Shown here piece by piece: positions 3,212 through 32,430 of a stretch of 35,705 nucleotides of DNA. The stretch spans positions 112,725 to 148,429 of the forward strand of contig JBJCIZ010001666.1 in NCBI GenBank assembly GCA_051294375.1, read 5' to 3'. Positions within the stretch are counted from its first letter, which is position 1. The number at the start of each line of letters is the position of its first letter. The notes under the pieces are model-generated. The model was not told the origin of the DNA, ran no database searches, and saw nothing but the letters and a program-made list of their open reading frames with translations. A program made the translations under genes and the position numbers. The stretch is from Paraspadella gotoi (taxonomy: Eukaryota; Animalia; Chaetognatha).

Positions 3212-4097
3212 CGCCACCTCTTCTGACCGGCGGACGCCATTTCCCGGGTGGCGCCAATCACGGGACTTCCGGCGACCACGCCCCATTCCGGTGGCGGCCA
3301 ATCCCCAAGCTTACTGGGTTTTTGTTTTAAAAAGCCAAATTCCCCCAACTCCAGTGATGCCCAAAACTTCCGCGACGCCCCCACATTCCGGCACACCCAC
3401 TTTCCGGTGCCGCAAAGTTTCATAGCTAGAAGAAAAATGAGACGCTAAAGCGGCTCCTGCAAAAAATCCAATAAAAACGAAGAAAAGTAAACCAACCCAA
3501 ACTCAAACTAATTGCATGACCAATATATGCCAAGTAAGCTTTTGTCCTGTCTTATATGTCCTTTGTTCTGTTAGCTTTGTACTGTATTACAATTTGTATC
3601 TCTATTTTTTTGCGAGCCGCTTTAGCGTCCTCATTTTCTTCTAGCTATGAAACTTTGGCGGCACCGGAAGTGGGTGTCGCCGGAAGTGGGCGTCGCCGGA
3701 AGTTTGGCATCACTGGAAGTGGGGGATTGGCTTTACCAGAAGCTGGGGATTGGCNNNNNNNNNNNNNNNNNNNNNNNNNNNNNNNNNNNNNNNNNNNNNN
3801 NNNNNNNNNNNNNNNNNNNNNNNNNNNNNNNNNNNNNNNNNNNNNNNNNNNNNNNNNNNNNNNNNNNNNNNNAAGAGGTGGCGGCGCGGAAAGTCGGAAA
3901 TTGGCGCCACCGGAAATGGGCATCGCCGGAAGTCGGGGATTGGCGCCACCGGGAGTGGGCGTCGCCGGAAGTTTGGGATTGGCATCACCGGGAGTGGGCG
4001 TTGCCGGAAATTGGCGTTACCGGAAGTGGGGGGTTGGCGTCACCGGAAGTGGGCGTTGCTGGAAATTGGCGTCGCCGGAAGTGGGGGGGTTGGCGTT
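3212..4097. repeat. GC-rich fold-back minisatellite of 18-30 nt units containing CCGGAAGTGG
   Basis: Units read ACTTCCGG on the left arm (3212-3420) and CCGGAAGT on the right arm (3655-4097). Inner inverted repeat TAGCTAGAAGAAAAATGAGACGCTAAAGCGGCTC (~3423-3456) / GAGCCGCTTTAGCGTCCTCATTTTCTTCTAGCTA (~3614-3647). Two N-gaps in or next to it. Confidence 0.75.
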
Positions 4098-4539
4098 TAT
4101 TTACAAATGGCTAGTTTGCAGCTAATTGTAGCTTAAGCTGTCGTTTATTTACAAACAGTTAGTTTAATAGTTAGAGTCTTCACATAGTCTTAAATATTTA
4201 TTCGTCCCTGAGAGAGGACAAATAGGGACAGACAGCCGGACCAAACAATCNNNNNNNNNNNNNNNNNNNNNNNNNNNNNNNNNNNNNNNNNNNNNNNNNN
4301 NNNNNNNNNNNNNNNNNNNNNNNNNNNNNNNNNNNNNNNNNNNNNNNNNNNNNNNNNNNNNNNNNNNNNNNNNNNNNNNNNNNNNNNNNNNNNNNNNNNN
4401 NNNNNNNNNNNNNNNNNNNNNNNNNNNNNNNNNNNNNNNNNNNNNNNNNNNNNNNNNNNNNNNTTTTTTTTTCTCAAGTAACTATTCTTCCCTCTCTATA
4501 TATTTTTGTTCTATTTTAGTTATTGTTTNNNNNNNNNNC

Positions 4540-5056: not shown

Positions 5057-6400
5057 TTATTCGGCTTTTCTTTTTTGTACAAAATTTCGCCAAATCAAAA
5101 CTTTTTCTCCTATTTGATAATCGACTATGTTATTTAGAATTAAGCTGGGCGTCGTTTCTATATTACGAGCCCGGCATATTTTATGTAATAGGGCCTCAAT
5201 TCTAAAATTTTTCTCTGCCAAATAACTCTCACTCGAGCCCTCTGGCGGTTCCGCCTCGGCGGTTTGAGAGCAAGGTAAGACTGGATCACGCCCATAGAAA
5301 AGTTGGTGGGGTGAAACCAGCAAATCGTTTTCGATTTTTATGGGTGCTATGTTTACCGCCCTTACCACCGATCACCATGTTTTAGTCCAAGGCTGTCCCG
5401 ATGGTTGTAAACGCCGAAACAGGGTAATTAAGGTAGCGTTCACTTTTTCAGACAAGTTCGAATTTTTTTGTGATGGTCTGAAGAAGTTACAAGTAAAGTG
5501 AAACTCTTTTGAAGCGTTTCCATTATGGTATTTGATATTCTCTACCTAGATCTGATTCTATGGTTCTAGGCGTTAGAGAATAACTATTTAATATATCCAT
5601 AATGGCTGTTGTTACTGTCTCTGCCATTTTGTTACGCAATGCTGCCGCAAAAACATAGCGGGAACAAATGTCAACCACTATGAGAGGGAATCTTTTACCT
5701 TCGATCTCTTCCAATTATAATAAGTCAGTATGTAATGTACTCCCAATGGCTGAATCAAAAATTGGGAATTTTCTCCCTTTTGTTAATTTTGCTTTTTGCG
5801 CTAAGGTGCAATTCTGACATTTGTGAAAAACTCTTTCACAAGTCGATTTTAAGTTGACAATGAAATATGTTTTGGCAATTGCACACTTCATCCTCGATGG
5901 GTTAGTGTGAGCTAGGGAGATATGTATGGAGGAAACTATGCGATCAGCGGCTGATGGTGGCACCACGATCGCGAGATATTCAGAGTTATCATCATTGAGA
6001 CCTGAGTAGTATAAGGTCCCGTTAATGACTTTGAGATTTTCTCTAATACTCAAAAGATGGTTAAGGTATTTAGATCTGACTCTTTCCACGTGATTTTCTG
6101 GTTCAATCCCTGTCGTGAGGACCTCAATTACTGCCACTGTGTCACTACAGTTGCTTTGCTCTCTTGGGAGGTCCTCATCTGAGGGAGAAACTTTTTTACA
6201 CTTAGTGATTTCGCCATTGGCGGCCGCCGCTACAGCGCTTCGAATTATGGCGTCGCCTCTGTCAAAATTGACTGGAATCACCTAGCAGACAAGGTTCTCG
6301 GCTTGTTGCTCTTCCATTCTCAGGCACATTACTCAAGCGCACAAGGCCATCCTAACTCCTTCAATACTCAGTGATTTTGGTATTTCGATGTAATTCCTTC
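5057..6400 (-). pseudogene. Degenerate Ty3/Gypsy-like (or Ginger-like) integrase
   Basis: H2C2 zinc domain (IHISLAH...CQNC), DDE core (LHTDL*, IVVDICSRY, IESDLGREY, RPSQKNSNLSEKVNATL in a shifted frame) and SPHQLFYGR. In-frame stop at 5715-5717 and frameshifts near 5523 and 5370. Confidence 0.85.
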
Positions 6401-10593: not shown

Positions 10594-10595
10594 TT

Positions 10596-10791
10596 GTCGG
10601 TTTTCCATCACCAACCCAGGAGGTTGCAATATTCGAATACTACTCTATCAAATTAATCTTAATGAAGGGAATATTGCACAGCACCACCTTAAGCATTGGC
10701 TAACGATTAGCATATACTTTAAAATGGTGCTAACCGACGTGGTGACGTTTTTTTTAAAGTGGTTTCGCCATTGACTAAAGCCCTAGTCCAC
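10596..10791 (-). ncRNA. Putative unknown pseudoknotted structured RNA, copy 1 (3' of SGNH gene)
   Basis: Conserved blocks shared with 13055-13195, separated by sequence-unrelated hairpins. Compensatory changes in two long-range helices. Confidence 0.65.
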
Positions 10792-11098
10792 TAATCCATA
10801 AAAAATAATAGAATAGTTATATTAATTTGAAAAGTTAACTGTGCTTCGATTCATTGACTCCCCTGGGCATCAATCATGGAAAATTAAATTCATTCTAATG
10901 TTACTAATACAAGCTGCAAGCCAGAGTAAGTAGCAATAAAATTATTATATCATTGCCGTACTATATTTGTTATTTCGTCTTAAAAAGTGAAGATTATCTT
11001 TTGTTAGCCTTCGAAACCAGAACCTTCTCTCAGATCATATTTCAATTTATTTCATGGACATTTCACCGCATGTGAGATATGCCCATAAGCATAACCCA

Positions 11099-11710
11099 TT
11101 ACATAAAATAAATTTTATAACAATTAATGATTTCATTTACAAGTAACTCATAACCTGCAAAATTGAGATGTAAACCATCAGCTCCAACAAATCTTTTGCC
11201 TCTATAAAATGTCATTGTATTAACTCTAAAAATAGAATCCTCGTGACAGGTACAAGAAAAATTATTTGAATTCAATGCATCAATAACTTTATTTACATCA
11301 TCTATATAATCTTGATGTAAAGACTCTGGAAATCTTGTATATTTATCTTGATTAACTTTTCTTGGGCACAACGGAACATAAATAATTTTCAGCTTTGGAA
11401 ACCTTTTAATCAAGTCACATGAATATTTCCTAATTTTTGTGGATATACGCTCACCAATAACTGTAGGCATGTCGAAGGTTGAATTCACCTCAAAACTTAT
11501 ATCATTTTGAGCTAATGATAATATCAGTAATGTATGTTCGCTTTTTAAATTTTTCCAAATATAACCACTCTCGCCCAATAAATCCGTTATGCAAGCACCA
11601 GAATAAGAATGTAATTCAATTTTTTTCAATTTACAAGACTCGGCAATATATTTAAAATGCATCTTATGTAAGTTTTTAAGCATACTATCAGACAAAACTA
11701 AGGCAGACAT
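11099..11710 (-). CDS. SGNH/GDSL-family hydrolase (esterase), 203 aa
   Basis: Uninterrupted ORF with block I LVLSDSM (catalytic Ser; SDS instead of GDS), block II YSGA, block III LAQNDI and block V DGLHLN (DxxH). Confidence 0.85.
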   Translation of the reverse strand: MSALVLSDSMLKNLHKMHFKYIAESCKLKKIELHSYSGACITDLLGESGYIWKNLKSEHTLLILSLAQNDISFEVNSTFDMPTVIGERISTKIRKYSCDLIKRFPKLKIIYVPLCPRKVNQDKYTRFPESLHQDYIDDVNKVIDALNSNNFSCTCHEDSIFRVNTMTFYRGKRFVGADGLHLNFAGYELLVNEIINCYKIYFM

Positions 11711-11906
11711 GATTTATGGCATTGGTTAATCTAAATGAAAAATAAAAATAAACATTACAGCCAATTCAAACAATAAAATAGAAAAAAAATCATTTTATTC
11801 ATCAAATATAACTTAATAGGGAAGTTGAAAACAAATTCCAATGACAAATATAATTATTTCTTTTTTGTTTTCTCTTTCAAAAAAAAAAAGATTAATTAAT
11901 AAATTG

Positions 11907-12135
11907 TGGCAACACATTCACTTTCGCCACCCGCCTGTGTCCTGCGCAGCCCCGGTGGCGTAAGAGTGAGAATTCTCTCTTCCCAACAAACGGTCTTGGG
12001 TTCGCGCCCCATTGGTGTCAACTAGTAAGCAGAACGAGTCGTCTAACCCACCTGTAGCGGCGGACTGCAGTCTGAGCCGAAGTTCTGAAATTAGTAAATA
12101 ACAGTCGTAGTTTGTCCTGTGGCACTGACTTGAAT
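11907..12135 (+). mobile_element. tRNA-like SINE family B with degenerate twister core (12021-12095)
   Basis: A-box-like GTGGCGTAAGAGTG and B-box-like GGGTTCGCGCCCC. Homologous to 26647-26835. Confidence 0.7.
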
Positions 12136-12836
12136 TGTCGGATCTGCCCACGATCATTAGCGGTAATTAATTATTAATTATTTAATTAATACAAACTAAA
12201 ATAATAATTTAAATAATAAATTAATTAATTTGTTTTTAGGTCTTTCGTCGCTGACCAGGACAAAAGCAACGACGGCGACGACGACAATAATACCGATTAA
12301 ATAATTAATTTATTTATAAATATATTGATTGATTGAATAATTAATTAATAAATAACTAAATAAATTTATTGATTGAATAATCTATTGATTGATTAATTGA
12401 CCAATTAAATAATTATTATTTAATTGACTAATTGATTAATTAACTGATTAATTATTTGATTACATTTGATTTACATTTAATATAAAAGAAAAAGAAGCAT
12501 AATCAATTAGTGAAACCGTTTTTTTGTTTTTTCCATTTAAACTCATTTCCACTCAGACGATTCCATCCAAACTTGATTTCCAGCTTAATCACACACTTTC
12601 CACATACAAAATTTCAAGTCAATCGCCCCATCCACTTATGAGTAATTGGAGTTCAAATAGTGAAATAAATTTTTTTGTTCTTTCTATTTAAACTCATTTC
12701 CACTCTCCTGATTCCATCGAAACTTTATATCCAAGTCAATCGCACGCTTACCTACCCACACACAAAATTTCATTCCGATCCATCCATCCAATCACGAGTA
12801 ATTGTTGTTTTTTGCTAAGGTGGGACGGACGGACAT
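12136..12836 (+). mobile_element. HINE-like element, 5' subTIR to microsatellite, with AT-rich expansion
   Basis: TGTCGGATCTGCCCACGATCATT start, core CATTTAAACTCATTTCCACTC repeats, GGGACGGACGGACA. Confidence 0.6.
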
Positions 12837-12846
12837 TATTATTATG

Positions 12847-12929
12847 AGAATTATCGTGATTTATCGTCTGATTAGCTGATAACCGCTTAATTAATAATTA
12901 TCGTAGCCATTGTTTGCTCAAACTTGTTT
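12847..12929 (-). mobile_element. HINE-like 5' end fragment
   Basis: Reverse complement AACAAGTTTGAGCAAACAAT...CAGCTAATCAG..GATAAATCACGATAATTCT matches 17922-17990. Confidence 0.65.
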
Positions 12930-13054
12930 CATAATTATGAAATAATGATAAAATTATGCATTCCCTCAAAAAAGCCGCGAAAAATATTTTCGGTACTTCT
13001 ATGTTTACATCTCCACATCCAAATAGGCATACAAATTGATAAGTTTGGTCCTGC

Positions 13055-13195
13055 GCCGGTTTTCCACACCAACCACAGGGGGATACAATATATATGTTTA
13101 TATATATTGCATTGTATCAAATCATAGTTGATACAAACCGGCTCGGTGTCGTTTTTTTTAACGTGGTTTCGCCACCAAAGGTAGCCCTAATCCAC
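13055..13195 (-). ncRNA. Putative unknown pseudoknotted structured RNA, copy 2 (3' of transposase gene)
   Basis: See copy 1. G-U pairs in several stems favour the minus strand (same sense as the genes). Confidence 0.65.
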
Positions 13196-13469
13196 ATTAT
13201 AGTAAATAATATCCAAATTTTCGATCCACAAAAAATTTTAATAATTATAAACTGCTTTGGAATGTATAAATAATAATTTAATAATGTTCAGACAACCTCT
13301 TGCGGTTAATAATCTAAACCCATTTAAAATTATAATCACTATTGATATAATACATTGAATACCTTGAATAATTTTCCATTCATAATTTTTATGATATTTT
13401 ACGCTAACTGGCTTAGGGTGGATTTTTAGCAATGGTTGAAGTTTGCCAATCCAAATGGTCAATCAAAAT

Positions 13470-13640
13470 CAAGGGAACACGTAAACAACCTTGTGATTAA
13501 CATTATTTTAATTTGGTCAATTTTTTTAGATTAATAAATCAAATCAATCATCTTCAAGGGAACAAGTAAACTACCTTGAGATTGACTTGAGGTAATTTCA
13601 TCAACCTCAAACAAGGGAACACGTAAACTACCTTGTGATT
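13470..13640. repeat. Three spaced 29-nt hairpin repeats
   Basis: CAAGGGAACA(C/A)GTAAAC(A/T)ACCTTG(T/A)GATT at 13470-13498, 13555-13583 and 13612-13640. Stem CAAGG/CCTTG. Confidence 0.85.
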
Positions 13641-13692
13641 GCATATTTTGAGGTTAAAATTTCAAAATATAGATTGTAGCTATCAATAGCTT

Positions 13693-16600
13693 TTACAGTA
13701 ATATAATATTACCTTTCTTAATCTCATTCAAAAGCTGAATCCTGACTACTCTTTGATTTATTTCAGTAATGAAAACATTTTTCTTTTTTTCAGTGTTTAT
13801 AACATCAACTACTAATCCATTTTCCCAATATTCTTCGCTATCTGTTTTTACTTTTTTTTGAAATTCACAGTTAATCAATTTTTTGGGTTCTTTAAGGTAT
13901 TTTTCATACATAGTTAAGGTTTTCTTTACTTTTTGTTTTCTTAAAGCCATTTCGATCTTTTTCGAAGTACTCGATAATACGAGTCCAGCTGCTTCAGAAA
14001 CATCACTGGTACTAAATGATTGTTCCTCTTCCACATCGAGAGTCTTGAGTAATGGGTTTTCTTGATAAATTTTACTCAAATGATTTAATTTTTCTTCTAA
14101 TGAGTATGTGCGATTCCGTTTAGTTTTACAAAAGACATCTTTGCTACTACAACTGGCATTGCAAACTTTATTCAAAAATTCAATATGTAAATTCAAAGCT
14201 GCAATCTTTTGCTTTGGATCAATAATTACATGTAACTTATCATTTACTTCCTTTTGTACCCACGGAGTTCCATATTTTTGAGTGAATTGGCGAATTATTT
14301 CTAATTTTCTCCTTCCTTGTACTTCCTCACGTTCTAATTGAGAGTCAATCTTTTTTTTTCTTTTTTCTAATAGTTCACTTTGATAATTTTCAAAAATAAT
14401 TTTTTCCTCCTCTCTTCTTTTCTTGAAAGACTTGAGTGCAGTGTCAAGAATTTTCTGCTGTTCTGGTAATGATTTACTATCAAGATAATCCATTGGACGA
14501 TTAGTTATCATCATGACACTTGTCTCTACAGTAGTAGGTTTGGCGGTTGGTTTCTGGTTAATGATATGTCGAGTCAGTCCAAATATTGATTCGCCCCATT
14601 GATTTGTTGTAGGTACGCTGGATGTTTGATCAATAAAATTTGGCTCATCTTGAAGAATATCCATATCTCCACCACTTAAAAAATCTTGTGCTTGAGTAAC
14701 TAAAGTGTACAATAGTGCCCCACTAATCATTTTTGCAATATTTAAAACTTCATTTCGATTAGGATCATCAGTTGGCATAATTTCTAGCATTTTTGTTACT
14801 CTCTCTTTTTCCAAGAATGCATCCGAAAAAGGTGATTGGCCAGCCATCATTTTGGATGCATCTATTTTAATTTCATTGAGGTATTCGTGAAGACATTGCA
14901 AATGAGGAATTAATTCTAAAATATGGACGTTAGTTTTACTGTATCCATCGCCAAAAGCTTTACCATAAAATGATCTCCATAAAGGTGAAATAATCAGAAC
15001 ATCATACAGTGCTATTGCTCTTAGTTGGTTCAGAGTTAGTTGGTCATGGAGGTCGAAGTTAATTGATTGAAATATCCTTACGCTATTCTCATTTTCAAAA
15101 AAATGAACAAGAAGATCTCGATTAATGATTATGCGTGTCGCAGCAGCAAATTCTATACCAGCACGACTGTGCTCAAAATGAACCATATTTTCCAATTTAT
15201 GCTTTTGACAAAATGCTTTAAAAACAGAAGATCTTCTCCATAATTCTTCTCCATGATGTGGAAAACAAACAGATGATATATTCTTTATAATACGCTGAGC
15301 TGAAGGCGTTTCTGATTGATACATATGAGGGTTGTGTTGTTGGCATTCAGCTTCAAATTGAGTCAAGCTTTTTAACATGGAAGTTCCAAAATTACTAATC
15401 AAGTGTAATTTACAATAAAAAGTATTTATTCGACTTAGTTCAGAAAGTTGTTCTTTGTTTAGGTTTTCATTTGCTTTCAGAGTGGGCAATAAGTCCTCTT
15501 TAAATTTCTTTAGCTCATCAGCAAAAGCTCCATTCACCGGAGCCTGATCTGTCATTGTATTGCTAATCTTGCAAATGATTTCTGCAATATCATTTAACTG
15601 TTTACCATCCTCTTTCAATCCATTATCAATAATATCAGTAAAAGTTTCATTAATATATCTTAGCAACGACTTTGCATCTTCATGGGTAATAGAACGGAGT
15701 CCTAAATTAAAAGTATTTGTTCTTGAAATTAATAATTTTAATATAATGTACAATTATATAATGTTTCAAGTTTAATTCAAATTTAGGTATAAATTAAAAT
15801 AAATGTCTAAAATGTACTATACAACTATCAATAGCTGACCAAATTTATATTTTAATGGGAAAATCATTAAACAGAATTAAGCTTTGGAAATCAAATTTAT
15901 GACCCAACCCATTGACATAGATTTGCTGTGATACAAGTATTAGTATTAATATCTATAATATATAAAATTTTATATTGATTCTTACCAATTACATAATGTG
16001 AACCATCAGAAAAATGCAACTGAGTTCCAAGAAAGGTTACATTGTTATGAGTCGCTGAATCCATTGCTAAGGTAATATCTTTTTCAGCTTTAATTTTTTC
16101 ATTTACTTGTGTCATTAATAATGAATGGCATTCGGTCAAAACTCGCGAAATAAACGTTGTTGAAGGTATTCTGCTCATTTCAAAACCAGTTATACGTTTT
16201 AAAACGATATTCATTGCCTGGGGAATCTTTTTTGCTGGAACCCCTTGCTCAAATAAATTCATAACACAAGTACGAATCTCATTTTGATACTTACCATCAG
16301 AGAAAATATGATATTCTTTATCTTGAAGAGAATCAATTATTTGCTCTAAGGCAGTAATTTCTTTATTTCTAATTTTTAATTGTTTTTCAAAATGGTTTTC
16401 TTTTTGCTCTAGCTCTGAGTTTTTCTCCACTATTTTATTTCTTAACAATTTACATAGATATCTTTGCTTTAGAAATTTATTCTGATATTTGGACTTGGCT
16501 TCTTTTTCTTCTTTCAACTTTCTCAAAAGAATGCTTATCGTTTTATCTTTTTGCTTTTGTATACCTTGTTCAATATTCATCCTTTCTTTACCTTTGTTCT

Positions 16601-17522
16601 TTATTTCAGCAATTTTCAAATCTTTCCTGACTTTCATTCTGTAGTGAGCTTGCTTCAAAAACTTATAGGAATTTGAAATTTTTTTTCTTTCTTTCATATT
16701 CTCTTTTAATTGTGTCATCAGCTTAGAATTTTCAGTTAATGGTTTTTCTGAGATACATTGAGAAGAGCTTATAACAGAAGGATCAGATTCCGAACAGATC
16801 TCCATTGGCATAATTATTGGATCTATTAAAAAAAATTTTATTCCATTGTAGCTTTTAATATAGTCATTTTTAGTTGTGCCGCGACTAAGCGCGGAGCAAC
16901 TCTATAACTCACTTTTGGGTTGCTCTATCCTAGTAACGTTAAAAATATTCATTACTTTATCAATTAATTTTATTTGTGGTAAGAAGGTAAAGTACTATTT
17001 AACCTCTAATATTCACATATATCATAATTGTGTCTCCTAATAATTTTTTAAATTTATCAAATGACTCAAAATTCACTTTTTTTATGATACAAAAAGTCAA
17101 AAAAATTGAAACAATTGCTAGCACCTTTTCTTTTTAAAAAAATTGGACAGGGAATAAAGATGATTTACAACGTGCCTGTCAAACATACACAAAAATATGC
17201 GTGATTAGAAAGTGACTGTGGTGCAACACAGTTGAATGTCGGTTCTTATTTTGAATTATTGCAAAGTTTAACTTTCTATACATGTAGATTAGAAAAAAAA
17301 ATTACCATTTATTTCACTCTCCAAAAAAAATGGTGACTGCAGATACACTTCGCGTCTCGTTGTTTTCAATATTTTAACTCTATGCCTCACATATCGTACT
17401 CTTCGAAGAAGTCTGTTATCACATAAATTTGATATATCGAATTTATTTTTTAATTTGTTTAGCATCGAAATTGCATTAAGACCATTAACCAACTCTAATA
17501 TATTTTTTATATTATTTTCCAT
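13693..17522 (-). CDS. hAT-like DDE transposase, 3 exons (17522-17306, 16822-15986, 15701-13693), 1020 aa
   Basis: Two GT-AG phase-1 introns join three ORFs in frame (..SEIN/DPIIMPM.. and ..SHYVI/GLRSI..). Lys/Glu-rich coiled coil, then ITLAMDSAT (D1), NTMTDQAPVN (D2), FYCKLH (CxxH) and VPTTNQWGESIFG (E, hAT-dimerisation-like). No stops or frameshifts. Exact superfamily uncertain. Confidence 0.8.
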
Positions 17523-17921
17523 TTTATACTAATATTTCATGTATCAGATAAAATTCGATCCCAGCACAACATATATATGAAACATATAAAATAAATGCAT
17601 GTCTTTTCCACCGTCGTCGCCTTCGTCGTCACCTCCATCCTCATCTGACTTCATTTTTCAGTCCCACCTAATTCTGTGAATATATAGATAAATATATGGT
17701 CATATATATTTCTAGAGTATAATGTACTCAAAACAGCCTTATCACCCACGCCATTACAATAAGTTTATAATGCCAACAAATACCAAAACAATAATCCGTG
17801 AATTGGGATAAAAAAGCATACTCAGAAATTTCAATGATATTAGCGTAAGTAAATTTTTCATTAAACAAAATGATTGTTTTAAGATAGTTAATGAGACTAC
17901 TATTTTTTTAAGGTTTATTTA

Positions 17922-18556
17922 TAACTAGTTTGAGCAAACAATAATTAATCGGTAATCAGCTAATCAGTTGATAAATCACGATAATTCTTTCAATTTGTGA
18001 TCCTAATTGATCTGAACAGATCGTACCATACAAAATCAGTGGCTGCGCCAATACATGTAAATCGCATGCAAGGGATTAGAGTAAACTTTTACTATGGTAG
18101 AAATAATTACAAATAAAGTACAAATAATTTTTTAACTATTATTTTTTTTTCAACTTGCATCATATTTTCCACTTGCATCATTTTTTTAACTTGCCTAATT
18201 TTTTTCAACTTGCATCTTTTTTTTTATCTAGCTCCATTCTTTTAATTCGCAATCATTTTTTTAACTTTGCTTTTTACATTTAAACTCATTTCCACTCGCA
18301 CGATTCAATCGAAACTTTATATCCAGCTTAATCACACACTTTGTTACAAACACACAAAATTTCATTCCAATCCATATATCAAATTGGAGTTTTTTGCTAA
18401 CGGGGGACGGACATTGTTTTTTTCTTCTTAATTTATCATAATTCGAAGTTCTGATATGATAATAATGATTTACCGACAAAATTTTGGGGTGGGACCGATG
18501 GACCGACAAAGTGAATTATAGATTAGGAATCTGCTGATAAGCAGATCCGACTAAAA
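17922..18556 (+). mobile_element. Near full-length HINE-like element with internal 18-nt minisatellite
   Basis: AGTTTGAGCAAACAAT start, (TTTTTTCAACTTGCATCA)n at ~18145-18220, core, GGACGGACA, terminal ATCTGCTGATAAGCAGATCCGACTAAAAA. Confidence 0.7.
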
Positions 18557-18789
18557 ATGATACCGCCGGCAGCAGAAAAGCTTAATATTCTAGTATTGAA
18601 TTGCGATAATTTTATTTTTATTTCCCATAATATTAGAAGTTTGAAATTTTTTTTTTAATCAAAGCCCCCTTTTTTTGTGCTACTGAATCAGCAGACACTC
18701 GTGCAGAGAGGTGGAAAATTAAAAGAAGGTTTCGATCAACGTTATGGTGTGGCAGCAAGTCTTAAAGTTGCCTCACTGCTGTCCGTCGG

Positions 18790-20545: not shown

Positions 20546-20748
20546 GCGGCCATTGGTGCCGGAGTCAAGTCATTCGCCTCCCAACCCAAAGGTCCGGGGT
20601 TCTAGCCCGGTAGTCGTCTGGCAGTTAAGAGGGATGGGGCGCTTAACCCGCCTGTAACATGGTGTTACAGCCTGATCCGAAGCTCAGGGACTGCTTATAT
20701 TGAACGGTTCTGTCATTAACACATAACAATAATTACTGTCTCTTCAAA
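20546..20748 (+). mobile_element. tRNA-like SINE family A containing a twister core
   Basis: TGGTGCCGGAGTCAAG A-box-like, GGGTTCTAGCCC B-box-like. Second copy at 30418-30561 plus 31170-31228. Confidence 0.75.
20621..20694 (+). ncRNA. Twister ribozyme, type P5 permutation
   Basis: P5 GCAGTT/GACTGC; GATGG; linker GGCGCT; T^AA (20644/20645); CCC; GCC; P3 TGTAACA/TGTTACA; G; P4 CCTGA/TCAGG; L4 TCCGAAGC. Confidence 0.75.
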
Positions 20749-21734: not shown

Positions 21735-22463
21735 CAGTCCTGTGCAAAAAAAAAGAGGCCACCCAAAAAAATTACGCAAATAAATAATGTTAGATTCTTT
21801 CATTATAAAAGATAATATAGGTTAATAATTTCATGGGAAAAAAATTATTGGTATAAATTTTATAAAAATTTGGCCATCCATTTATAAGCAATAAGTTATT
21901 TAACATAACTACTAAACCAAATTATGCAAGCAGACCAAATTATATAAGTTGACCACAATATTCAAGTAGACCGAATTAAACAATTTAACCAAATTATTCA
22001 AGTAGACCAAATTATTCAAGTAGACCAACCAAATTATGCCATATAACCAAATTATACCAATTGAGCAAACTATACTGGTTGACCAAACTATAACAGTTGA
22101 CTAAATTATACAAGTTGACCAAATTATGATAATTGACCAAATATATAAGTTGAGCAAATTATGCCAGTTGACCAAATTATGCCAGTTGACCATATTTTAC
22201 AAATTGACCAAATTATGTTAGTTGATCAAAATATTCTAGTTGACCAAATTTTGTAATTTGACTAAATTATGCAAGTTGGTATTGACGGAGCTACTGGTAT
22301 TATGATTTGTAATGATCTGTTAAGATCACAAATTAAAAATCAGAAAATATTATCATGATTTATCATCGGATTAGCTTATTACTAGTTAATTATCATAAGC
22401 AGATCCGACATTGTTTGCGCAATTTGAAACTTAAGGTTGGCCTATTTTTTTTGCACAGGAGTG
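21735..22463. mobile_element. Tc1/mariner-type non-autonomous element with internal 18-nt minisatellite and HINE fragment
   Basis: TIRs CAGTCCTGTGCAAAAAAAAAGAGGCCA / TGGCCTATTTTTTTTGCACAGGAGTG flanked by TA on both sides. (GTTGACCAAATTATACAA)n at ~21915-22280. Confidence 0.8.
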
Positions 22464-26085: not shown

Positions 26086-26646
26086 AATTTGACGTTATGG
26101 ACATAGATAAAAGTAATGAATCCTCCAATTTTAGATTTACTTATCAAATAATTTCACGGTTTCCCGGTGCTGCTTTGACGGAGGACTTGGATCGGACTCG
26201 TCAGTTTTTCTGTGAATTATTACAAATAAATTAATGAGGCTAAATAAATAATTATGAATAAGTTTCTGCTGCATTCTCATTTATTTTGAACATAAGTCAA
26301 AAAGCCCTAGTCCTTTTTAATCTTCTTATGCTTTAATCAACAAAGTGTAGTAATAAAATTCATAAATTGTTTAATTTAGTCCCAAAAGAGCTTTATCTCC
26401 CTGTATAAACGACTTACCATTTATAAATTAATTAAATATGACAAGATGGATATCTTAGTGATAATAATTAAAATGTTTCTAACCGTTTAGGTCGAGCTCC
26501 CAAATGTTCTCTTAAGTCCCTAAAAATAGGAATGATATTAAACATTATATTCGGAGATAAGTAATAGATTCTCTTGGAATAAAAGTTTGTCTTTGGATTT
26601 GTAAAATGCCATATTGAATATCAACATTAAGATAAATTAAACTTTG

Positions 26647-26835
26647 TGGCAACACATTCACTATCGCCAATCGTCTGAGTCTATCGTAAGAGCGAGGATT
26701 TTCTCTTCCCACCAAGCGGGCTGGGGTGCGCTAGTAAGCGGGACGGGACGTCTAAACCACCTGTCGTGGCGGACTACAGTTAGATCCGAAGTTCTGAAAT
26801 AACAGGCGGTAATTTGTCTAGTCGTGTGGCATTAA
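26647..26835 (+). mobile_element. SINE family B copy with twister core (26731-26800)
   Basis: Homologous to 11907-12135. GACGG-GACGTC-TAA-ACC-ACC...TTAGA-TCCGAAGT-TCTGA. Confidence 0.7.
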
Positions 26836-30417: not shown

Positions 30418-31228
30418 GGTGCCGGAGGCAAGTCATTCGCCTCCCAACCCAAAGGTCCGGGGTTTTAGCCCGGTGGTCGCCTGGCAGTTAAAGAGGACGG
30501 GGCGCTTAACCCGCCTGTAACACGGTGTTACAGCCTGATCCGAAGCTCAGGGGCTGCATATTAGGGTGGAGTGATGAAAAGATTGAGTGATGGAACAATG
30601 TTATTTGGCTGCCTTTGTATATGTAATAAAAAATAATTAAGCCCTTTTTGCATAACAGTATCATTAATTGAATTTTCTTTTAGTAATATCCTTATAAAAT
30701 CATAAAATTTCAAAATCATATTTTTTTAATTTTAAGAACTGTTTTGGATTCGCCGGAAAAAAACTGAAAAACTTTTGTAAAATATGTTTATGATATTTTT
30801 AGGTTAAAGCTGCAAAAAATGACTAAAACGTTTCATCATATAATAGTTTCTACTACAGAGCGTCAAAAAGGGGAAATTTTAACCTTTTTTTCAATTTTTG
30901 ATACTGAAGGCATTGAAATTATTAATAACATGTTTTATATTTTTTGATCTAATTTTTATGAAGAATCAGAATCTTTAATAAAAATTTTAAAAAAATTCTT
31001 TTGAAAATTTATTATTTTATAAGGATATGACTATAAATATATTGTAATTAATGATACTGTTCCCCAAACAATACAAGCAAAATATTTTTTGTACTCCTTA
31101 ATCATACGATCTCACATCTAAAAATCCTTGTTTGTTCACTCAAATAAAATTTATTATTGCTCCACTCTACTGCTTATATTGAACGGTTCTGTTCACTAAC
31201 TCATAACAATTATCACTGTCTCTTCAAT
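30418..31228 (+). mobile_element. SINE family A copy (twister core 30484-30557) split by a hAT MITE
   Basis: 30418-30561 and 31170-31228 rejoin to match 20555-20748. Confidence 0.8.
30562..31169. mobile_element. hAT-type MITE
   Basis: Termini TAGGGTGGAG / CTCCACTCTA with 8-bp TSD CTGCATAT / CTGCTTAT (1 mismatch). The empty site is visible in the SINE copy at 20691. Confidence 0.8.
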
Positions 31229-31229
31229 A

Positions 31230-32430
31230 GTTTGAAATTTTACGAATATATAAGGATATTACTATAAAGAAAATTCAATTTATGATATTGTTATGCTAAT
31301 TTTTTTTCAAAAAGATATTAATGATTTTTCATTATTTAAAGGCAGAAAAAAAATATTATTCCATTGCTCAATATTTTCATAGCTCCACCCTAAATCCTAA
31401 TGGCCATAACCATTATGAATGGAGCACTCGAGAACAAAAAATTTATTTGAGTCAATTAACAATAATAATTTTATGCGAGATAGTATGATTATTATATATA
31501 AAAAGTATTTTGTTTATTTTGTTTCGGGAACAGAAAAGCAAAATACAATATATTTATAGTAATATCCTTATAAAGTAAAAAAATTTTATAAAATATTTTT
31601 AAAAAATTTTTATGAAAGATTCAGATTTCTTATAAAAAGTTAGACTAAAAATATAAAACATATCAAAAATTCCCATGTCTTCAGTGTCACAATTTTAAAA
31701 AAAAGTTAAAATTCTTTATTTTTTCACTCTCTGTAGTAGAAATTATTATGAAATTGGTACAACCAATATAAAAATTATCCATTCATTTAATAAATAAGCT
31801 ATCTTGCCCCTGACTTTGGATAGGCTTTGGTGGTTTAAGGCCTCCTCTTATATGATAAGACGTTTTTATTATTTTTCGCATCTTTAACATTAAAATATAT
31901 AACATATTTTATAAAAGTTTTTTTTATTTTTTTTTATGAATCTGAATCTGTTAAATTTAAATATTTTAAATTTTTAAAAATTTTACGAATTTATAAGGAT
32001 ATTAATATAAACAAAATACAATTTGCTATATAGTTATATTAAATTTCTTTAATTGCGTATACAGATGCAGCAAAAAATATTGTTAACTCGCTTAATTTTT
32101 TCATTACTCCGCCCTAATAACTTAGCTTTGGTTTTTGTTTTAAAATAACTGGTGGAGCATTGGGGAACATAAATTTTATTTGAGTGAACAAACAATGATA
32201 TTTAGACTTGAGATAGTATGATTTTAATTTAAAGAGTACAAAAAAAAACAGTATCATTAATTTCAATATATTTATAGTCATATCCTTATAAAATAATAAA
32301 TTTTTAAAATAATTGTTATTAAAGATTCTGATTCTTCTTAAAAAGTTAGATCAAAAATCTAAAATATGTTATTAAAAATTTCAATGTCTTCAGCGTCTAA
32401 GATGGAAAAAAAGGTCAAAATTTTCCACAA
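31230..32430. mobile_element. Cluster of fragments of the same hAT MITE family
   Basis: Termini CTCCACCCTAA (~31383-31393), CTCCGCCCTAA (~32107-32117) and GGTGGAGCA (32151). Internal blocks match 30562-31169 in reverse orientation. Confidence 0.65.

Follow-up and report, generated by a model that had tools for sequence, protein, structure and literature searches.

A divergent, transcribed hAT-fold transposase gene beside an SGNH hydrolase gene and two copies of a predicted RNA-like motif in the chaetognath Paraspadella gotoi

Two genes and a repeated motif at the locus

We analyzed a 35,705-nucleotide stretch of the genome of the chaetognath Paraspadella gotoi (assembly GCA_051294375.1, contig JBJCIZ010001666.1, positions 112,725 to 148,429; hereafter, the window), which consists of AT-rich, eukaryotic, repeat-filled DNA. 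Its minus strand carries a spliced gene for a DDE transposase, a stand-alone open reading frame (ORF) for an SGNH/GDSL hydrolase, and one copy of a structured motif past each gene (Table 1). The transposase is a new, divergent, and expressed member of a known and widespread hAT group, and the evidence for this assignment, and for the relation of the transposase to its two neighbors, is set out below.

The transposase coding sequence comprises three exons and translates into 1020 amino acids (aa) without a stop. Eight splice combinations keep the frame open from the ATG; the quality of the splice signals decided in favor of this model. Contigs of runs X9 and X7 lack both of its introns (483 and 284 nt), and contigs of X2 and X5 retain them (the contig comparison covers these 4 of the 11 listed runs). 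This confirms the gene model and shows that the gene is transcribed. Ahead of the ATG, the transcribed stretch includes a small acidic ORF of 37 aa (17523-17700, minus strand). Run X7 differs from the window at four nonsynonymous sites and one synonymous site of the transposase, five sites being few, and contigs of two runs share a joint that skips a segment at the end of exon 3; if this is a plain deletion, the resulting allele is predicted to meet a stop at codon 977 and to lose the Tudor-like tail. The 4:1 nonsynonymous excess and the tail-removing allele fit an insertion that is not under selection. Contig depth in X2 over 13952-15233 is 1.4 to 1.9 times that of the flank, and the same run contains a 699-nt skip, a weak hint of extra, internally deleted copies.

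The 203-aa ORF is a member of the SGNH/GDSL hydrolase family and, judged by its sequence, a predicted enzyme: it keeps S9, G38, N69, D178, and H181, with the catalytic blocks all in order, and gives values of 0.95-0.96 against Atlas GDSL clusters and an E value of 6e-4 against Pfam GDSL, which is under the gathering score. None of 300 shuffles yielded an ORF as long. A splice-acceptor-like site lies about 20 nt upstream, and an AATAAA occurs at 11051. No relatives of this ORF were found among 83 candidates, a single viral stretch passed a further screen with no locus coming back for it, no PDB match fell below E 0.04, and the window holds no second SGNH remnant. The ORF is not enclosed by a single repeat copy. 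That both genes are intact and lie on the same strand, as the initial annotation of this locus had stated, is borne out by these results.

Table 1. Coordinates of genes, motif copies, and repeats in the window
Feature	Position	Strand	Remarks
Structured motif, copy 1	10596..10810	-	Abuts end of high-copy repeat at 10594; fold z -2.45
Stand-alone SGNH/GDSL hydrolase ORF, 203 aa	11099..11710	-	Same strand as transposase
Dispersed repeat	11888..12091		Second copy at 26629-26800
Nested high-copy repeats	12136..12936		GGAC microsatellite, subterminal inverted 11-mer
Structured motif, copy 2	13040..13211	-	Crossing helices, A-run, two variable hairpins; fold z -4.10
Probable 3' terminus of transposon, TAGGG-type	13414..13440	+	9 nt exact match to ends of miniature inverted-repeat transposable elements (MITEs)
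Three 43-bp direct repeats, probable subterminal repeats	13459..13643		Inside the 13414 end
Segment skipped in second allele	13555..13825		Joint in X2 and X5 contigs
Transposase exon 3	13693..15701	-	D403, C448xxH451, R531, W593, E722; Tudor-like last ~75 aa
Transposase exon 2	15986..16822	-	Coiled-coil region and D327; 284-nt intron skipped in X9, X7
Transposase exon 1	17306..17522	-	ATG at 17522; 483-nt intron skipped in X9, X7
High-copy repeat upstream of transposase	17911..18560	+	Expected left-end site; contig depth up several hundredfold

Transposase family and element ends

A Pfam scan of the 1020-aa transposase gave no match. A word search returned one relative, P0001, at E 2e-19 (1 of 7994 candidates), the core of P0001 led to 184 further relatives, and a full HMMER search recovered 483 clusters at 50% identity, an animal family without a Pfam entry whose named or classified members come from sponges, cnidarians, and molluscs; none of 63 viral contig stretches held a relative. 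The catalytic positions of the window protein are those of the family: D403, C448, and H451 are kept in all 41 aligned sequences, R531 in 39, W593 in 37, and E722 in 40, and D327 aligns with the first Asp. A structural model of P0001 built on an 80-row alignment reaches a predicted local distance difference test (pLDDT) score of 87, and Hermes is its top match (Foldseek E 7e-7; Z 15.9, root mean square deviation 4.5, 347 aligned residues), ahead of ISCth4 and the P element in both structure searches. The hAT-like DDE identity proposed in the initial annotation is thereby upheld, and the window protein is, on its residues and on the modeled fold of its relative P0001, a hAT-fold DDE transposase. 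The C terminus of the family matches Spindlin Tudor domains (profile E 1e-18), and the last 75 aa of the window protein align to the Tudor part of the family profile, which is slightly circular in that the window's exon 3 is 1 of its 80 rows. A search of the full-text literature, with Repbase Reports and subscription journals outside its coverage, found no relevant paper on a Spindlin-type Tudor domain in hAT or other transposon proteins.

To place the ends of these elements, we took 41 loci from 207 candidate stretches (one, L013, duplicates L012). Five related coral-type loci begin sharply at TAGGG next to four different flanks, and eight loci, seven of them distinct, had enough flank for a test of TIRs (terminal inverted repeats) and TSDs (target site duplications). 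L001 (1931-9763) has 15-bp TIRs and L012 (3704-8918) imperfect ones, both of TAGGG type; in each element these ends, together with an exact TSD of 7 bp, enclose only the transposase. Subterminal repeats also occur in relatives. No SGNH gene was found by tblastn across the 41 loci (190,074 nt), by a block pattern search beside the relatives (for which a positive control worked), by Pfam on 49 flank ORFs, or, in the complete L001 element, among the ORFs listed for its 3' part, and no copy of the structured motif occurs in 40 relative loci. Given the short flanks, we hold with moderate confidence that SGNH genes are lacking near the relatives.

Other features were seen past transposases of this family. 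In L014, an ORF with a NADAR domain (3403-4119, minus strand; Pfam E 1e-24) lies convergently, right after a family member that is short at its C terminus; the ends of this element were not found, and the NADAR gene is a candidate cargo only. Another conserved hairpin of about 45 nt lies 64-84 nt past the transposase end in four relatives (L003:3845, L008:2126, L009:12792, and L010:3354), with 12 predicted pairs, one of them showing double changes, and no Rfam match.

In the window itself, the annotated absence of TIRs and a TSD holds in that no full pair with a TSD encloses the gene, but it overlooked a TAGGG-type end at 13414 with three 43-bp repeats inside it. This end is the best match in the window, MITEs aside, to four local MITE ends, a match expected about 0.001 times per 600 nt, and it stands in the right orientation 280 nt past the transposase stop, between that stop and motif copy 2. 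By its sequence, 13414 is the probable end of the window transposon, which would place motif copy 2 about 200 bp outside the element; no left end or TSD was found to go with it. A scan of the window for TIRs and TSDs returned 857 pairs, mostly AT-rich chance matches and none credible. Two possible left ends, at 17670 and 17642, were put aside, since their TSDs match poorly and a spliced contig crosses both. The motif's own TAGGG was rejected as a terminus, having no partner or TSD and being preceded by bases that pair within the motif. The MITE that shares this type of end lies at 30562-31169 within a SINE-like repeat (an empty copy of which is at 20553-20698) and has an 8-bp duplication, and two more TAGGG-type ends occur nearby, at 31392 and 32116.

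A structured motif past both genes

The shared 3' motif described in the initial annotation is real: the two copies align with a local score of 61, and none of 500 shuffles exceeded 36. It measures 175-220 nt, and its copies sit 310-500 nt past the stop of each gene in the same orientation. The copies are about 72-76% alike, and their two hairpins, although at the same positions in both, differ in sequence and are unalignable. Outside the motif, by contrast, the flanks of the two units give scores that 58 to 368 of 500 shuffles reach (four comparisons), so that similarity is confined to the motif. Of the 1329 nt from the SGNH start to motif copy 2, 885 belong to other, dispersed repeats, and the annotated claim that the motif joins the two genes into one unit finds no support here.

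Both copies fold beyond shuffled sequences (reached by 2 of 200 shuffles for copy 1 and by none of 200 for copy 2), and in both the strand of the genes gives the better fold and the larger number of G-U pairs. Four long-range helices, with two crossings, are possible in both copies. Of 19 countable pairs, none is lost in either copy and two are changed on both sides, while a third double change hinges on a one-base gap; the structure was derived from the same two copies used for this count, and a pair-count shuffle (119 of 500) is uninformative with two sequences. Covariation across two sequences is suggestive only. The copies lie past the nearest predicted poly(A) signals (11051 for the SGNH gene; 13282 and 13242 for the transposase), and the principal contig of X7 ends at 13239, near the motif edge, an observation from one run in which contigs cannot fix RNA ends.

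No Rfam family matches anywhere in the window at gathering level, and six Rfam matches at E up to 10 include no twister, hammerhead, hepatitis delta virus-like, pistol, or other ribozyme. The motif was not found in viral contigs, prokaryote genomes, or phages, collections that hold little animal DNA, and eight short prokaryotic word matches (6-11 bits) without the full set of blocks were rejected as chance. Only two copies were found; a search with copy 2 at 80% likeness missed copy 1, so that diverged genomic copies could escape it. In keeping with the annotated view of a structured and unexplained motif, we predict an unclassified RNA-like element, real and structured, that matches no Rfam family.

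One comparison is with the twister ribozyme (PMC5408937 and PMC8501958, from partial texts), which, like the motif, has two pairings that cross, a stem of 4-5 bp, and a junction rich in A, and whose P5 permutation the order of elements recalls; the motif is three to four times longer, however, and has neither the L4 loop conserved in twister nor the GC of T2. The motif most likely acts as RNA in transcripts that read through the poly(A) signals, where it would bound the SGNH unit by being processed or by cleaving itself, self-cleavage being a possibility that we place some way below even. Bolder still, it could represent a new class of RNA with several pseudoknots, perhaps able to cleave itself, that stands as punctuation after mobile-element genes of one orientation in an animal genome; at the extreme, it would mark off cassettes, with hAT transposase and esterase handled as modules in RNA processing and perhaps in mobilization. 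We regard this as doubtful. New classes of structured RNA or ribozyme are rare in animals, which makes the motif the larger prize, but with two copies and a predicted role only, it should be taken as a lead rather than as an established finding.

Explanations of the locus and known systems

The explanation that we favor, at somewhat better than an even chance, is that a spliced hAT-fold DDE transposase, from a family with TAGGG ends and 7-bp TSDs and with its own end likely at 13414, is a chance neighbor of a motif-flanked SGNH gene. By chance, the transposon would have landed some 200 bp from one copy of an older predicted structured RNA, two copies of which flank a separate SGNH gene; a later insertion of a repeat probably removed the left end of the transposon. 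By analogy with Hermes, and from the fold, the residues, and established hAT chemistry, the enzyme would attach to the terminal and subterminal repeats, cut the element out, and join it to target DNA that has been cut in a staggered fashion; from its likeness to Spindlin, the Tudor-like tail may read methylated histones and so bias insertion, which would make chromatin-guided insertion by a hAT enzyme testable.

Several observations weigh against this explanation. On the side of the family, the window transposase is only 20-30% identical to its relatives, forms a long branch within the family (FastTree, 41 sequences), and by itself folds badly (pLDDT 37), so that the fold evidence is that of P0001; five of the seven distinct loci tested yielded no TIRs or TSD, only five relative loci have at least 2 kb of 3' flank, and an intron-split SGNH gene would escape detection there. 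On the side of the element, neither a left TIR nor a TSD was found in the window to go with the 13414 end, contigs of the spliced runs cross it (X7 to 13239 and X9 to 13393), the X9 contig extends upstream to 17832, no loose contig end occurs at 13414 among those listed, and the MITE with the same type of end is flanked by a duplication of 8 rather than 7 bp. Finally, the presence of the motif after both genes and in the same orientation is left as a coincidence.

The initial annotation had proposed a single TIR-less element made of gene-plus-motif cassettes, in which the motif would serve as the mobilization end and the SGNH gene may be an added cassette. This model draws on the common strand, the same motif at similar distances past both stops, the lack of a TIR pair or TSD in the window, the X7 transcript contigs that reach the motif edge, and the NADAR gene convergent with the transposase of L014, which makes cargo possible. 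The relatives, however, have ordinary TIRs and 7-bp TSDs with neither SGNH nor motif, a TAGGG end stands between the gene and its motif, copies so diverged and with unalignable hairpins are unlike freshly copied ends, and the asymmetry in energy and G-U pairs favors an RNA of one strand over a DNA end. We consider this account unlikely, and an undescribed lineage of TIR-less cassettes is not supported: in L001 and L012 the ends enclose the transposase alone with the SGNH gene unlinked, and the co-occurrence of SGNH and motif, which the annotation had suggested testing, did not appear beside relatives in the loci examined. These relatives, at 20-30% identity, are not copies of the window element, and their evidence speaks at the level of the family more than on a local cassette in the window.

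Alternatively, the transposase could be domesticated, an immobile and expressed host gene that has lost its ends; the SGNH gene next to it would then belong to the host as well, and the motif would be a regulatory RNA common to the two. An open frame with two introns spliced in two runs would fit, as would the lack of a left end and the X2 depth, which is flat over the gene and motif copy 2 as in unique flank (depth not being a firm copy number). The nonsynonymous excess, counted at so few sites, and the tail-removing allele speak against domestication, as do the fully kept catalytic residues, the probable right end with subterminal repeats, and, weakly, the extra X2 depth and 699-nt skip that hint at deleted extra copies, and we judge it improbable. 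The remaining alternative, an array of Terminon- or Penelope-like character whose co-oriented passengers, here both genes, carry a ribozyme fold and are copied with their introns by a reverse transcriptase encoded elsewhere, is quite improbable. Terminons, as described in the available part of PMC6431247, contain esterases of the GDSL type, take up genes, and have a ribozyme fold at their end, and the motif is likewise a sense-strand, double-pseudoknot-like RNA; but neither the hammerhead nor any other Rfam family matches it at E up to 10, the window contains no Penelope-type reverse transcriptase among its ORFs and no telomeric repeat array, and the TAGGG end with subterminal repeats is better explained by DNA transposition.

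Among known transposons, Hermes (PDB 8edg, 6dwz, and 4d1q) shares with the window's family the RNase H DDE core, the helical insertion with CxxH and Trp, and the TIRs and subterminal repeats seen in relatives. The family departs from Hermes and other hAT elements in having no Pfam BED or hAT dimerization domain (window exons and nine relatives) and in its long N-terminal coiled coil and C-terminal Spindlin-type Tudor domain, and from classical Ac, Buster, and Tip hATs in the 7-bp TSDs of the relatives, where those have 8 bp. The hAT superfamily as a whole is marked by short TIRs and TSDs of 5-8 bp, as seen in L001 and L012, while the window shows one probable end. Its 7-bp, TAGGG group is presumably the subgroup named hATw. 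In the available part of PMC13465017, hATw appears as a class label only, and Repbase holds hAT families annotated as having a "7-bp TSD" (PMC4455052, partial text), which are alike in TSD length and hAT fold and were compared by description only.

Dada elements (PMC3706591) resemble the transposase in a DDE core with C/DxxH and in long, intron-bearing genes; as far as the available text describes them, they lack TIRs, target small-RNA genes, and carry CCCC and CCHC fingers, none of which is seen here, as the relatives have TIRs, the window has no tRNA or Rfam gene, and the translation has no Dada-type fingers. KolobokP (PMC9587614, also in part) has a composite-like layout with repeats around cargo, much as the initial annotation had imagined; its direct repeats, however, measure 450/660 bp and come with TIRs, and its cargo is a His-Me nuclease, whereas those of the window are about 200 nt, diverged, and without TIRs, and the second ORF encodes an SGNH protein. 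Two motifs of the window's transposase family do not occur in the KolobokP supplements available, in which gapped alignments can hide words. The annotated statement that SGNH esterases in transposable elements are known mainly from LINEs (long interspersed nuclear elements) and some Penelope-like elements needs the addition of a DNA transposon, since Helitron-borne texim (PMC4021074, from partial text) is likewise a stand-alone SGNH hydrolase in a transposon-rich setting; unlike that case, the window has no RepHel gene. A literature search by title and abstract, with Repbase Reports and subscription journals outside its coverage, returned nothing on SGNH proteins with DDE transposons of this family.

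Further repeats occur in the window. Those flanking at 12136-12936 we take, from their anatomy, to be DINE/HINE-like. Outward-facing 5' ends of a high-copy repeat (12847-12936 and 17911-17988) bracket the transposase and motif copy 2; they match in inverted orientation over 47 nt at 91%, which is probably chance, given the copy number. Broken remnants of a long terminal repeat retrotransposon integrase lie at 5057-6281 on the minus strand (Pfam Integrase_H2C2, E 3e-7), and related tandem arrays of 18-19 bp occur in opposite orientation within high-copy repeats at 21916-22278 and 18144-18267.

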